From positions 17,491 to 81,490 of IMG/VR virus record IMGVR_UViG_3300034137_000024: a DNA stretch of 64,000 bases, one strand, 5' to 3'. Of the stretch, positions 2,863-49,122 are shown piece after piece. Positions within the stretch are counted from its first letter, which is position 1. The number at the start of each line of letters is the position of its first letter. The DNA is from a virus. The notes beneath the pieces are model-generated. The model did no database searches. It saw only the letters and a list, made by a program, of their open reading frames with translations, and was not told the origin of the DNA. Both the position numbers and the translations under genes were made by a program.

Positions 2863-3710
2863 ACGACGTGGCGCGCTACACGCGATCCGATATCGTCTAC
2901 TCAGGCTTGGAGCATGAGCATCGCCATTTCGTCGATGCTCGTGATTATGACGCGCTGCTCTCCAGGGTTCAGGCCTTGGAGGGCTACAAAGCCGCTATCA
3001 TCAGTACCCTGATGATCAACCACGGCATGAAAGCCGAGCACGAAACCGATCCGCGTCAGGCCTTGGCTGACCTGGTGCATATCGAGTGCGAAATGGCGCT
3101 TGATGCGCGGATCAGCGAACGCGCCCGGCTGACCAGGTACTCCCGGCCGGCCGTCTCTTGGGTATTCATTCAGACACCTCCTGATTGGCAGCTTGTACCT
3201 TGCGAACCAACCCCGCAAATGGTGGCTGCGCCGTTTGCAGGCAAGGTCGAAGCCCAGTGCGTCAGTACGCAGACGCGTAGCCGTCAGCAGATGGCCGAGA
3301 ACTACAAGGCCATGATTGATCACGCGCCAGTGAGCACGATGGGGGATATTTACGCCTACAACGGCGTGCCGGCGCGCAAGAAGGCAACCCAGATGGTCGA
3401 TGGCCTGATGGTGCTGAGCCTGCGCGATGTAGGCTGGAATGCCGCACTGGACCTAATCGCCGGGCAGACCGAACTGGAGCTGACCGACGCGCTCAAGCGC
3501 ATCCTGAACTTTCCCGAGTTCGTCCTGCAGGTCGTCGCGGCGGGCATGCAGAACCGGGGCATTGCCGACTTCGGCGGCATACTCGACCGGTCCAAGGTTC
3601 TGCACTGGATGCTGAGCATTTATCTGCACCACGGCGAAAACTGGGTAGCGATCGCCGCTCACGAACTGGGCGAAGGCTCGGCCTCGGAGATGCTGAGGCG
3701 CCATCAATGA
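2859..3710 (+). CDS. Hypothetical mosaic phage protein
   Basis: ATGA overlaps; DWQLVPCEPT..MV.A segment typical of mosaic early proteins. Confidence 0.7.
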   Translation: MNDVARYTRSDIVYSGLEHEHRHFVDARDYDALLSRVQALEGYKAAIISTLMINHGMKAEHETDPRQALADLVHIECEMALDARISERARLTRYSRPAVSWVFIQTPPDWQLVPCEPTPQMVAAPFAGKVEAQCVSTQTRSRQQMAENYKAMIDHAPVSTMGDIYAYNGVPARKKATQMVDGLMVLSLRDVGWNAALDLIAGQTELELTDALKRILNFPEFVLQVVAAGMQNRGIADFGGILDRSKVLHWMLSIYLHHGENWVAIAAHELGEGSASEMLRRHQ

Positions 3711-3891: not shown

Positions 3892-4290
3892 ATGATTCAG
3901 ATTGCCCGGTACCGGCACAGCAAACAGTTCAAATCGGGCCTGCCGGCGATTGTCGGGCCGCGCTCTTACACCAACGCCCAGCGTCGCTGGCAGGCGCGTA
4001 TTTCGGTCAACGTCCCGACCAGGCGAATCGAGATTCACGACCAGGACTTACAGGCCGTCGACACCGGCGGCGTCTTCACTGTGCCCGACTCGCCCGTCGC
4101 GCTGGTGTACGAGAACAGGCCCGAGCAGAGCATGACCGTGAATATCGGCGTTCTGAGCTACTCGCAGGCCTGCGAGGTCATCGCCGATCAGATGCAGGAG
4201 CTGCTCCGCGAGTGTCCGGACTGGACGGACTTTGAATGGCAGGTCTGGACGGAAAAGGGCAAGGCCCCGAAGGTTCGGAGGGCAGGATGA
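3892..4290 (+). CDS. Hypothetical phage protein
   Basis: In operon; MIQIARYRH... Confidence 0.65.
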   Translation: MIQIARYRHSKQFKSGLPAIVGPRSYTNAQRRWQARISVNVPTRRIEIHDQDLQAVDTGGVFTVPDSPVALVYENRPEQSMTVNIGVLSYSQACEVIADQMQELLRECPDWTDFEWQVWTEKGKAPKVRRAG

Positions 4291-15212: not shown

Positions 15213-16379
15213 ATGCCGAAATTGACGAAAACCGCCGTAGACAATGCCCAGCCACCAGCCAGCGGCGACGCCTGGCTCTGGGACAGCGAGCTGGAAGGTT
15301 TCGGCGTGCGAATCATTGCATCGGGCCGCAAGACCTACGTTGTCCGGTACCGAACCAAGGCCGGCAATACCCAGCGCAAAATGACGGTCGCCCGCTGCTC
15401 GGATGTACCGCCAGAGAAGGCTCGCGAACTGGCACGCAAGGTGTTTTCCTTGGTCGCCCAAGGCTTCGACCCGGTAGGCGACAAGCGCATCAAGAAGGAA
15501 TGCCCAACGGTCCAGCAGCTTTGCACGAAGTACATGAAGGAACACGCCAAGCCGTTCAAAAAGAAGCGCAGCGTCGAGCTGGACGAAAAGAACTGGCGCC
15601 TGCACATCCTGCCAGTGCTTGGTGCCGCCGAGGTGGCCGAAGTGAAGCGCTCGGACATTCTCAGCCTGCACGGCAGCCTCGCAGACACACCCGCAACAGC
15701 CAATCAGGTCCTTGCCCTGCTCTCCAAAGCGTTCAACCTTTCCGAGGACTGGGAGTGGCGACCACGCAACTCGAACCCTTGCCACAAAATCAAGAAATAC
15801 GACCTGCAGGAACGCGAAACCATCCTGAGTCTTGCCGACATCAAGCGGCTGTACCAAACGCTGAATGACCTGCTGCAGGAAGGCAAGATTTTGCCCCAGA
15901 TGTACGACTTGATACGCCTGCTGATGCTCACGGGCTGCCGCCTGCGAGAGATCATGAGCGCCAAGCGAAGCTGGGTAGACTTGGAGCGGGCGCTGCTGTT
16001 GCTACCCGACTCCAAGGTGGGCCAGCGCAAAATCTCCCTGCCGGACATTTGCATGACGATCATTGCGGAAATGCCGGACAGCGAATGGCTGATCCCCAAC
16101 CGCACCAACGACGGCCCGCTGGCCGACCCTTACCGCCAATGGAAAGCGATCAAGGTCGCGGCCGGGCTGCCGCTAGAAATGCGGATACACGACCTACGCC
16201 ACACTGCTGGCAGCCTCGCGCATATGGCGGGCATGTCTCAGAAGCAGATCGCGATTCTCCTCGGACACGCCCAGCTTTCTACCACGGCCCGCTACCTGCA
16301 CGGCGCCGCAGGCGACCACGCGGTGGTTGCCACCAAACTGGGGGATGTTATTACCGGGGCTTGGAGCAACGCCGCCTAA
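15213..16379 (+). CDS. int: Tyrosine integrase with N-terminal arm-binding domain
   Basis: WD.ELEGFGVR arm domain; LTGCR..EI, RIHDLRHT, LGH, TTARY; SD GAGGAG. Confidence 0.95.
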   Translation: MPKLTKTAVDNAQPPASGDAWLWDSELEGFGVRIIASGRKTYVVRYRTKAGNTQRKMTVARCSDVPPEKARELARKVFSLVAQGFDPVGDKRIKKECPTVQQLCTKYMKEHAKPFKKKRSVELDEKNWRLHILPVLGAAEVAEVKRSDILSLHGSLADTPATANQVLALLSKAFNLSEDWEWRPRNSNPCHKIKKYDLQERETILSLADIKRLYQTLNDLLQEGKILPQMYDLIRLLMLTGCRLREIMSAKRSWVDLERALLLLPDSKVGQRKISLPDICMTIIAEMPDSEWLIPNRTNDGPLADPYRQWKAIKVAAGLPLEMRIHDLRHTAGSLAHMAGMSQKQIAILLGHAQLSTTARYLHGAAGDHAVVATKLGDVITGAWSNAA

Positions 16380-39530: not shown

Positions 39531-40991
39531 TCAGCCGAACGGCAACCAGGTGGAAGTGCTTGGCAGGATGTTCTTGATCAGAACGTGCTGGTTACGCTTG
39601 GTGACGCGCAGATAACCGCAGATCATCTGCAACCACGGGATAACCGGGCTGTTCACCGCTGCCATCGGGATCTTCATCATCGGCAGGAACTGGCGCCAGG
39701 CGATCGCGTGGTCGGCTGGGTTCAGGTTCAGCGCGTAGGAGCACGCGGTGCCCGGAATTTCGCGGTTCAGGTCAGTGAAAGTCGTGGAGGAACCGCTTTT
39801 CGCAATGCGGGTCATTTCACGAACGTCCGACAGAACAGCGGTACCGTCCTTGCGGCCGCGATAGATCACGTAACCAGTCTCGGTCGCACCAGCCGAAGCG
39901 GTGATGGTCAGCGTCACGCTGCCACCGGCGGCGACAGTTACAGCGCCTTCGGCTGCGGTGATGGCTGCCGATTCACCCTTGTGGTTGATGCCTGTCACCC
40001 AGTACACGTACGCACCGGCGTGGGTCGATTCCCAGTAGGAGTCCGAACCGCCATCGGTAACAGCGACAGCGCTGAAGGCGGCAGGCTTGAACGCGGAGTT
40101 TGCAGCGGCGACTACGGCATGCGCGTTGTTGCGCAGTTCAAACGGAACCTGCAGCTTTTGGTCGCGAATGAATACGTCGCTGTTGGTCTTGATGGTGCCG
40201 TACGACGTCTGAATCGCGCTGACGTGGGTGCCCAGGACGGTGGAGCTTGCTGTGTTGCTCAGCAGCACGCGGAACGCCGGGTCCAGTTTCAGGTTGAGGT
40301 CGGTCTGCACGCTTGGCGGCATGTAGATGTCGGTCAGGGTGCCGAAGTTGCCGAAACCGAACACGGTCTCTGCTGCTTTAGCGATCGGGTCGATGCTCGA
40401 CAGCGCGCTGGCACGCATGTCGATAACGTGGTCCGTGCTATCCAGGCTTTCGATCTGCTGACGCAGGCCGGCGAAGGATTTCGGAGTGACCTCGTCGTTA
40501 CCCTCGAACATGCTGAACTCGATAGAGGTCAGTAGCTGCTTGGTACCATTGACCGATTCCAGCGATACAGCGTCCTGGATGTTGTTCTGCGATTGCAGAA
40601 CGATCGGCACCTTACGGTAGGTGGTCATGTACTTGACCTTACCGACACGGCGAGCGTAATCGCCCTCAGTTTCGGAGGCCGAGCCATCTTGGTCGTTGAA
40701 GCTATCGCCCAAGAAACCGCCAATGGACGACTGCTCGCTCCATTCGTCGATCACGGCAGTGGCTTTAGGCTTCTGCAGGGCGTTAAACAGGACGAAATGC
40801 TTGTTGTCCTGCACGGTCGCCTGCAGCGTGGTGTCCAGGGACTGGATACGCAGCGCAGAACCGCCAGTCATGCCAGAAACGTCGGTCTCATAACCGGCAT
40901 TCAGCGACTTTTGCAGTTCCGCCAGTTGATCCATGCCCATATCGCCGGCTTCGGTAGCACCGGAGAGGTTGGGGTTATTCAGGAAATCCAT
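39531..40991 (-). CDS. Major capsid protein (SPO1/phage K-like)
   Basis: LQKSLNAGY...GSALRIQSLD; follows protease and scaffold genes. Confidence 0.9.
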   Translation of the reverse strand: MDFLNNPNLSGATEAGDMGMDQLAELQKSLNAGYETDVSGMTGGSALRIQSLDTTLQATVQDNKHFVLFNALQKPKATAVIDEWSEQSSIGGFLGDSFNDQDGSASETEGDYARRVGKVKYMTTYRKVPIVLQSQNNIQDAVSLESVNGTKQLLTSIEFSMFEGNDEVTPKSFAGLRQQIESLDSTDHVIDMRASALSSIDPIAKAAETVFGFGNFGTLTDIYMPPSVQTDLNLKLDPAFRVLLSNTASSTVLGTHVSAIQTSYGTIKTNSDVFIRDQKLQVPFELRNNAHAVVAAANSAFKPAAFSAVAVTDGGSDSYWESTHAGAYVYWVTGINHKGESAAITAAEGAVTVAAGGSVTLTITASAGATETGYVIYRGRKDGTAVLSDVREMTRIAKSGSSTTFTDLNREIPGTACSYALNLNPADHAIAWRQFLPMMKIPMAAVNSPVIPWLQMICGYLRVTKRNQHVLIKNILPSTSTWLPFG

Positions 40992-45405: not shown

Positions 45406-45615
45406 AAAAAAAAGCCCGACCGTTATGACCCGGCCGGGCTTGGGTGCTTCGATCCGACTACCACGACGAACGTGGCTCAAAGCTGCGGGGTTGCTATGCC
45501 TTCCGTACTGCGTTACCGCAGCCGTCTCCCGAGCAGGGCGGGCTGATAAGTGTCCCAGAGGATTAACCCCCTCTGGCCCGGTAAGGCTTCCCGGGATCGT
45601 TGGGCCGTCTTGCTA
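45406..45615 (-). ncRNA. Candidate structured RNA / attenuator between portal and MuF genes
   Basis: ATG-free on - strand, five hairpins, motif variant upstream (45622-45637), intrinsic terminator 45406-45441. Confidence 0.45.
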
Positions 45616-47440: not shown

Positions 47441-48106
47441 GTGTTCAGTGTTTTCGAGAAGCAACTGCGTGCCCACTTCGTTCAATCCATTCACGCCGCG
47501 GGCCTGAGCCTCAGCCTCGACACCTTCCCCAGAAGCGGTGAATTCAACGACCCTGTCACCGCCTATATGTATCAAGGGTATGCCTTGCGGGCCAAGGAAT
47601 ATGGGCTGCAACCAGCGGTAACCATCCGCAACCACCCGCAACCGATACTCAAGGTGAAGAAGCTTCACCGCGACGCACAAATGCCTGTCTACGCAACGCC
47701 GGGGGCTGCCTGCTTCGACATCAGCGCAGTGGTCGACGATCCAGAAGGCATTCATGTGCGACCAGGCGTCGCCGCGATTATCGACACCGGGCTCGCGTTC
47801 GAGGTGCCCGAGGGGTGGGTACTCAAGGTGTACTCGCGCAGCGGCATGGGCTTCGGCCACGGTGTACGGCTGGCCAACTGCGTTGGAATCATCGACAGCG
47901 ATTTTCGCGGCGAACTGAAGATCAAGCTGGCCTGTGACCGCGACCAGATCGCCGAGAACTGGAGCTGCAATGGTTTTTCGGTGAATACCGGAAAACGCAT
48001 CGCCCAAGCAATGCTGGTACCCGCGCCACAATTCCCGATCCTAGAGGCCGTGGAACTGGCGGTAACTACCCGTGGTTCCGATGGGTTTGGAAGCACAGGC
48101 GCATAG
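47441..48106 (+). CDS. dut: dUTPase with about 65-aa N-terminal extension
   Basis: ACFD, RSG, GIIDSDFRGE, RIAQ, RG..GFGSTG; start codon uncertain. Confidence 0.9.
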   Translation: MFSVFEKQLRAHFVQSIHAAGLSLSLDTFPRSGEFNDPVTAYMYQGYALRAKEYGLQPAVTIRNHPQPILKVKKLHRDAQMPVYATPGAACFDISAVVDDPEGIHVRPGVAAIIDTGLAFEVPEGWVLKVYSRSGMGFGHGVRLANCVGIIDSDFRGELKIKLACDRDQIAENWSCNGFSVNTGKRIAQAMLVPAPQFPILEAVELAVTTRGSDGFGSTGA

Positions 48107-48122
48107 GTCGTGACCGCAAAGT
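48107..48122 (+). promoter_or_regulatory. Late-type promoter GTCGTGAC-CG-CAAAGT facing non-coding DNA
   Basis: Consensus match right after the dut stop codon. Confidence 0.6.
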
Positions 48123-48128
48123 TCATCC

Positions 48129-48400
48129 ATTGCCGCGCATGACATTGTCAGCAAGCGCCCCGGAAGCGGTCACCGGGAACAGATGACACGGTGAGACCCT
48201 AGCCGGGAGGGCCGCAGCAGCGGATGGTCCGGATGAGGATAAGCGAATGGTGCCTCAGCAGAAAAAACCAGCGCAGCATGGCCACGGAAAACTAAGCCTT
48301 ACTCCTGCCGGGGGCCATCCTGAAAGCTGATAGACCTGACGCATCTGGGCGACGGGGTCAGCAGACAGGTCGCTGACGGCGGGAAAGACCGCACTCCCCT
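48129..48400 (+). ncRNA. Candidate structured RNA
   Basis: No ORF of 60 aa or more, several stems, shares elements with 45406-45615. Confidence 0.45.
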
Positions 48401-48864
48401 CCTCCTTGCGCATGACGCAACGGCGACTGCAAGCCCCTGAATATGAACGAAAGTTAATAGCGCCTATCAGCGATGTTCATTTGACATCACGATCACGACT
48501 TGAGCAAAAAAATAGTTCAAAAATGTTCAAGTTTGCGATCCATTTGTGTCGTTCTTGTTGTAACGTCAGCCCACCGGGAAACAATCGCAAGTGCGCGATT
48601 ATTCTCGGGGTTTTGTAAAGAAACCGTACATTGGCTGATGTTTTTCTTACAAGATCGACACAAAGTAGCGTGCTAAAGCAGATTTCAGATACAAGTTAGA
48701 AAGCACGGGTAAATTTTGGGAAATGAAAGCTGTACCAACCACTCAAGACATTGATTGCTGAGCCGACCGCCACCGGCCCAGCAGCGAAACGCCGACCAGT
48801 TATGACCAGGTCTACGCTTCAACCAATAGTCGCCGCAGTTGCACCTCTAGGAAAGGAAGTGTTC

Positions 48865-49122
48865 ATGAACGAAAAAAGCATGGCGCGTTTTTTAGGCTTG
48901 GCCCCAAAAGCACAACCTACCGCCGTTACACGCGGGCTCGTTGTTGTTATGTCAGTACGCAAGGGTGGTGTCGGCCCGATTCTGCGATACACCCACCCTA
49001 CCAACACCATCAGCCGCCTCGAGGCGCAAATCGAGGCTCAGCAGGCAGCCAGAAGGGAAGGCCTGACGTTCTGGACCCTCCTCGACATCTCTCCACCTGA
49101 TCAAGTTGCCGTCGCGATGTAA
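48865..49122 (+). CDS. Hypothetical protein
   Basis: SD AGGAAAGGA before MNEKSMARF; AT-rich upstream region. Confidence 0.6.
   Translation: MNEKSMARFLGLAPKAQPTAVTRGLVVVMSVRKGGVGPILRYTHPTNTISRLEAQIEAQQAARREGLTFWTLLDISPPDQVAVAM

Follow-up and report, generated by a model that had tools for sequence, protein, structure and literature searches.

A predicted full-length form of the Proteo-phage-1 RNA motif in a PHB04/Dolphis-like phage

Introduction

The HK022 put RNA, about 70 nt long with two hairpins, lies next to the early promoters, and the boxB element of the lambda nut site has a five-base loop and requires N; C4 and CI are antisense RNAs of P1 and P4, respectively. Proteo-phage-1 (RF03044), which Rfam classes as "Gene; sRNA," is a motif that we take to originate with Weinberg et al. 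2017. The main text of that article (PMC5737381) does not discuss it, and the name "Proteo-phage-1" did not occur in the searchable literature. ROOL and GOLLD, phage RNAs found near tRNAs, form cages (10.1101/2024.12.08.627333).

Here we analyze RNA 2, a non-coding segment within a 64,000-nt stretch of viral DNA (the window, whose numbering is used throughout) taken from an 84.7-kb phage record. RNA 2 covers the whole 82-position model of Proteo-phage-1 in a phage context and adds to it a junction, an optional arm, a GAAAGA hairpin, an optional 5′ leader and a phage promoter motif. Like ROOL (RF03087) and GOLLD (RF02032), it is ornate, pseudoknotted, phage-borne, sometimes found beside tRNAs and functionally uncharacterised, but it is much shorter, outside their 400-800 nt; neither Rfam model matched it at E values up to 5, the comparison with GOLLD being through its Rfam model only, and a model of RNA 2 did not match a ROOL copy. 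With put and boxB it shares being a structure in sense transcripts, often before terminators, with a purine-rich hairpin loop, whereas HK022 carries its RNA 2 relative separately from put, in the late region. Like C4 and CI it is a small structured phage RNA, some of whose relatives lie near Rha or antirepressor genes; unlike them, it has no Rfam match to these antisense RNAs, and no complementary targets were found in the flanking RNA of 58 members (276 complementary 8-mers against 326 in the control, hence no excess).

Results

A promoter-like motif heads a non-coding segment

The portal of the window shares 64-71% identity with its counterparts in Aeromonas phage ST4, Bordetella phage PHB04 and their relatives, a range that also covers Pseudomonas phages Touem01, Dolphis and Jeremy; the phage carrying RNA 2 is a PHB04/Dolphis-like phage. 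RNA 2 lies on the plus strand directly 3′ of the dUTPase gene, with the portal gene to one side of the two and the terminase gene to the other, both on the minus strand (Table 1).

The GTCGTGAC octamer begins immediately past the dUTPase stop. The window contains 20 copies, mostly just before genes, where 2.7 would be expected. Of the 24 copies genome-wide, 21 have A at +12 and 21 have T at +16; the RNA 2 copy conforms. The motif also precedes the relatives of RNA 2 in the close relatives L006 and L039, as well as in PHB04, where the RNA sits at another locus. A first-pass annotation had placed a consensus promoter at this site, and the over-represented octamer agrees with this to the extent that a promoter-like motif is present, but the promoter scan returned no sigma-70 consensus promoter at RNA 2 and the motif itself does not follow that consensus. 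A literature search found no paper on it. We infer that GTCGTGAC acts as the late promoter of this phage, which would place the transcription start of RNA 2 near 48129.

As the same annotation had stated, there is no ORF of at least 60 aa within 48127-48400, the longest ATG frame being one of 52 aa on the minus strand, and ARAGORN found no tRNA in the window. Farther along the plus strand, an 85-aa ORF without a Pfam match (48865-49122) converges with the end of the terminase gene, and L006 and L039 have similar ORFs at this position.

The core of RNA 2 matches Proteo-phage-1

Using cmscan, we found that positions 48197-48278 match RF03044 at 50 bits (E 4e-7; gathering cut-off 42) over all model positions 1-82. 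The core of RNA 2 is therefore already catalogued, and the suggestion that the RNA might be undescribed does not hold. All consensus pairs are formed in the alignment, and both consensus hairpin domains, the GAUAAGC and AGUGC loop bases and the A-rich linker are present, with one loop base differing (GGUGC); the location, between the dUTPase and terminase genes, is a non-coding phage one, as for Proteo-phage-1. ARAGORN and Rfam gave no match to tRNA, tmRNA, known ribozymes or riboswitches. Conservation runs about 120 nt past the model, and the conserved RNA as a whole has roughly 2.5 times the length of the Rfam entry. By homology, the RNA 2 gene is thus a full-length form of the Proteo-phage-1 motif, of uncharacterised function, in which the predicted architecture beyond the entry is new and the core already known.

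Covariation supports a fold that extends beyond the Rfam entry

Relatives were gathered by portal-linked loci, pattern scans and iterative HMM searches, the scans and HMM searches yielding 161 matches, some of them redundant; a pattern scan of genome contigs gave mostly chance matches, and we dismissed as noise a weak match of the model elsewhere in the window (15611-15705, 9.6 bits, E 0.29). Across the approximately 160 relatives, the conserved fold extends to 48395. In an alignment of 40 distinct Pseudomonas-type members, made on sequence only, a 56-pair structure is 96% paired, with compensatory changes (both sides altered) at 26 of the 56 pairs, counts that are not probabilities because the structure was drawn from the same sequences and the members are related. 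When the partner columns were shifted by 1-3 positions, pairing fell to 30-43%. Several pairs of the fold also rank near the top of an unbiased mutual-information scan, intermixed with phylogenetic noise. As an independent check, a covariance model built without the window sequence matched RNA 2 end to end, over all 214 positions, at 62 bits, while folding of the single sequence was uninformative (z-score 0.17). On this comparative evidence RNA 2 is a real, tightly folded non-coding RNA gene, whose predicted architecture has two pseudoknots in tandem, then a three-way junction and finally the GAAAGA hairpin.

Table 1. Coordinates of RNA 2, its predicted structural elements and neighboring features in the window
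Feature	Position	Strand	Remarks and evidence
dUTPase gene	47561..48106	+	upstream neighbor, outside RNA 2; PHROG 135, Pfam PF00692
Promoter-like motif, GTCGTGAC-N3-A-N3-T	48107..48122	+	octamer 48107-48114; -10-like hexamer 48117-48122
Optional 5′ leader	48129..48196	+	two hairpins (48135-48158; 48159-48177); sequence-changed equivalents in L006, L039
Proteo-phage-1 core	48197..48278	+	RF03044 match, covariation
PK1 pseudoknot	48197-200/48208-211	+	3/4 pairs compensatory
P1	48203-207/48228-232	+	core helix; compensatory changes among three close relatives
P1b	48212-215/48220-223	+	core helix
P2	48234-238/48253-257	+	core hairpin; compensatory changes among three close relatives
PK2 pseudoknot	48243-245/48272-274, perhaps also 48248-250/48268-270	+	P2 loop pairing past A-rich linker
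3′ domain	48274..48375	+	outside RF03044 model; three-way junction and optional arm; covariation
P3	48275-277/48372-374	+	closes three-way junction
P4	48278-283/48313-318	+	C/U-rich loop; compensatory changes
P5	48319-322/48366-369	+	optional arm P5-P6-P7; compensatory changes
P6	48326-330/48358-362	+	optional arm P5-P6-P7; compensatory changes
P7	48335-338/48353-356; 48340-342/48349-351	+	optional arm P5-P6-P7; compensatory changes
3′ module	48372..48395	+	GCNGACRG, then hairpin P8 (48379-382/48389-392) with GAAAGA loop
Pyrimidine-rich tail	48395..48420	+	with small hairpin (48406-48420); sequence; similar C/U tail in L006, L039
RNA 1	45441..45614	-	multi-pseudoknot family, downstream of portal gene; own model and covariation

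Helix sequences vary freely among members, while the unpaired GAUAAGC, AGUGC, A-run, GAGA, AnnnGG and GAAAGA stay fixed. PK2 covaries across divergent members (none of 5000 permutations reaches the observed value); it is weaker in the window copy, with three pairs only in register, and the other helices of RNA 2 are all intact. P4, P5 and P7b are kept in the window-type group, short members have exactly the P5-P7 arm cleanly deleted, and longer members carry larger inserts. In one subgroup (L325, L328, L339 and L447), the pseudoknot core is kept and larger, different inserts stand ahead of the final hairpin, whose loop is longer. The 3′ module forms the end of most full-length members, and the pyrimidine-rich tail that comes after it in the window may be the 3′ end of RNA 2; no U-tract or intrinsic terminator was called there.

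The four stems drawn in the first-pass annotation can all pair, and two of them (48278-48318 and 48379-48392) are the conserved P4 and P8. A third, at 48159-48177, belongs to the leader common to the two close relatives and is missing, like the whole leader, from the PHB04 copy, support for the leader being only moderate because it comes from just three sequences. The fourth, GACCTG/CAGGTC at 48333-48371, is not conserved: it forms 6/6, 5/6, 4/6, 1/6, 1/6, 1/6 and 4/6 pairs in seven close members, is incompatible with the conserved P5 and P7, and costs 3-6 kcal/mol relative to the family fold.

RNA 2 is patchily distributed and occurs in varied gene contexts

RNA 2 is present in 3 of 29 clade genomes and missing from 26, the three being the two close relatives, at the same site, and PHB04, at another locus (MF663786.1 25700-25906; L472 1501-1707, minus strand). 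There, the RNA lies before a helicase gene in a cassette: it has the promoter motif ahead of it and a GC-rich hairpin behind, after which comes a separate copy of the motif for the next gene. Most other members come from phiAH14a-type lambdoid prophages, where a terminator stands on one side of the RNA and a holin gene or tRNA on the other, and a third group lies in early operons, ahead of Rha or replication genes. The flanking of a portal-dUTPase pair by RNA 1 and RNA 2, to which the earlier annotation had pointed, is correct for this genome but incidental for RNA 2, given the PHB04 copy and the distance of most members from portal genes.

The genes 3′ of family members are unrelated (holins, tRNAs, Rha, a replication protein, Rep3, a helicase), and members are in sense orientation to neighboring genes in the contexts identified. 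Of 58 members, 30 have a terminator-like hairpin no more than 80 nt past the RNA, against a background of 4%. A tRNA stands directly after the RNA in some members and nearby in 19 of 160. Lengths range from a compact form in P22 and HK022 to 200 nt in Pseudomonas prophages and more in others. The compact relative (P22 record 40170-40315) scores low but significantly, at 15 bits in P22 and 13 bits in HK022, and by BLAST the form seen in P22 is present in 165 phage records, those of P22, BTP1 and HK022 among them; STnc6030 of BTP1, considered as the same RNA, lies at a different locus (PMC7067206). BLASTN of the RNA 2 segment against named phages gave no match, and a BLAST of 51 genomes of one genus, run without a positive control, gave no relative. 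Taken together, the comparison shows, as read from sequence, the fold and extent of the RNA, its modular build, its mobility between phage groups and its dispensability within the clade.

Several of these loci have further features. In L006 (7067-8540) and L039 (6468-7740, minus strand), the RNA is followed immediately on its 3′ side by iteron repeats and a gene for a Rep3 initiator, suggesting that these two closest relatives are phage-plasmids; the window has an AT-rich stretch at the matching position (48420-48750), and its genome record has no Rep3 match. An antisense "hypothetical protein" annotated over the RNA of phiAH14a (p55; L310 3738-4268) is probably spurious. One contig, L448, holds two copies about 850 nt apart (2877-3081 and 3928-4140), one of them degenerate. 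In other clade members, the slot upstream of the portal, on the opposite strand, is occupied by tRNAs or by a gene for RtcB (L001 6475-6809, L075 7072-7147, L004 4984-6177), and is therefore a variable cargo site.

The 3′ hairpin also occurs as a stand-alone module

The pattern RGCNGACAG-N2-4-GGAAAGAC has at least 120 matches in viral contigs. Among 116 that we examined, 98 form a hairpin of at least 4 bp (about 5% expected), and 70 of these 98 lie outside the Proteo-phage-1 family. GCNGACAG with its GAAAGA hairpin thus stands alone in many unrelated phages (L477-L591; for example L515 4-23, L508 965-984 and L540 286-305), often preceded by a C/U-rich stretch and sometimes a few bases before a tRNA, with 5 of 40 non-redundant modules within 25 nt of a tRNA start. 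Neither an Rfam entry nor, in a literature search, a paper was found for this module. Since the module lies mostly outside the family, RNA 2 looks as if a hairpin of much wider distribution had been joined to the pseudoknot core.

RNA 1 belongs to a separate family

The first-pass annotation had regarded RNA 2 and RNA 1 as a related pair on the basis of shared words. These words do occur in both segments, on the minus strand in RNA 1, but the similarity is at chance level: a local score of 21 was equaled in 145 of 1000 shuffles, the repeated CCCGG-N9-CCGGG is borderline (4 of 100 shuffles), and neither the sequence of the CCCGG stem nor the GACGG word is constant among relatives of RNA 1. Moreover, the RNA 2 model gives about 0 bits on RNA 1, and the RNA 1 model matches neither RNA 2 nor its relatives. 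A 9-nt word common to the P4 loop of RNA 2 and a loop of RNA 1 was rejected as a sign of kinship, as it is not conserved in L006 and L039. Compensatory changes in 24 sequences support three pseudoknots in RNA 1, and 18 of 21 clade genomes, Dolphis, ST4, Touem01 and fHe-Yen8-01 among them, contain a match to its model, so that the two RNAs differ in topology as well as in distribution (18/21 versus 3/29). On these comparisons they are two families rather than paralogues, and nothing here supports a remote common origin. RNA 1 has no Rfam match and may be the more novel of the two. PHB04, which has RNA 2 at a different locus, gave no match to the RNA 1 model; because this is a single case, substitution of one RNA for the other there is only a possibility.

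Discussion

The first-pass view of a promoter-led, non-coding, structured and probably late phage RNA is supported by our comparison. Our preferred reading, held tentatively and at somewhat less than an even chance, is that RNA 2 is a discrete late RNA that would act in trans through its shape, most likely as a protein-binding decoy or scaffold. In this proposal, a stand-alone, mobile RNA gene would be transcribed from the phage late promoter into an approximately 270-nt RNA starting at about 48129, which would fold into the two tandem pseudoknots, three-way junction and terminal hairpin and accumulate as a discrete species late in infection. Its three-dimensional shape would most likely bind a host protein, and the RNA would be accessory cargo, dispensable for assembly. 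The variable helices and fixed unpaired stretches fit a shaped binding surface, and the terminator-like hairpin or tRNA that follows many members would give the RNA a defined 3′ end. Action in trans is favored by the RNA's own promoter motif at two independent loci, the defined 3′ boundaries in many members, the unrelated downstream genes and the failure to find cis targets. Against it, the terminator data would equally fit an attenuator, the window copy has a weakened PK2 and no intrinsic terminator after it, and the conserved unpaired bases would also suit a ribozyme or ligand pocket. We found no protein partner gene; with no TROVE in five genomes and RtcB in PHB04 only, a Y-RNA-like role with Ro60 or RtcB is unsupported.

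The main rival, which we consider unlikely, is a cis-acting, put-like antiterminator or attenuator that would allow transcription past the following terminator to reach genes for lysis, tRNAs or replication. It owes this rank to the terminator-like hairpin that follows the RNA in half of the members, right before holin genes, and is consistent with the sense orientation of members and with the GAAAGA hairpin, which presumably recalls boxB. However, the next gene in PHB04 bears its own promoter motif, in the window 470 nt separate the RNA from the next conserved sense ORF, which is just 85 aa long, and the P22 copy, followed by no U-tract, lies inside a transcript that is, by annotation, already antiterminated by gp23. 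A base-pairing small RNA whose C/U-rich, anti-Shine-Dalgarno-like P4 loop silences host or phage mRNAs is improbable. In its favor, 41 of 57 members have CCUC, CUCC or UCCU around P4 against a 16% background, a count inflated by the relatedness of the members, such words persist in P22 and the short forms, and the window has a C/U tail at 48395-48407, but the loop varies in length and sequence without a contiguous seed, cis targets were not found, and the elaborate conserved tertiary core would be superfluous.

Quite improbable is a ribozyme or processing element that would cut the late transcript, freeing tRNAs for instance, or would protect it. The double pseudoknot with invariant unpaired bases would suit such a role, as would the tRNAs that some members have a few bases past their 3′ hairpin and that also follow some stand-alone modules, yet RNA 2 matches no Rfam ribozyme, few members have a tRNA nearby and the window has none. 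We see very little chance that RNA 2 is a packaging RNA or a self-assembling cage acting with the portal and paired with RNA 1. The site between terminase and portal, the probable late expression and the cages formed by the tRNA-associated ROOL and GOLLD (10.1101/2024.12.08.627333) would accord with it, but RNA 2 is missing in most of the clade and elsewhere is not near portal genes, has about one-third of the size of ROOL without matching a ROOL copy, and shows no loop-loop covariation among the top pairs of the mutual-information scan. It is just as doubtful that the window copy is a decaying passenger without current function: the three-pair PK2, the lack of a terminator and the patchy distribution would be expected of decay, whereas the other helices are intact, P1 and P2 have compensatory changes among close relatives and the promoter motif is perfect.

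By itself, the RNA 2 result discloses no new mechanism. It reveals that an orphan Rfam motif covers less than half of its RNA, and the full fold, the promoter-bearing copy, the natural deletion variants and the compact relatives in P22 and HK022 make its function testable in standard laboratory phages. Going beyond RNA 2 acting in trans, Proteo-phage-1 might be the catalogued fragment of a widespread modular class of late phage RNAs whose fold and shared GAAAGA hairpin bind a conserved host factor or defence protein, an idea that we regard as decidedly unlikely; if true, such RNAs would give phages an RNA-only tool for counter-defence or host takeover.
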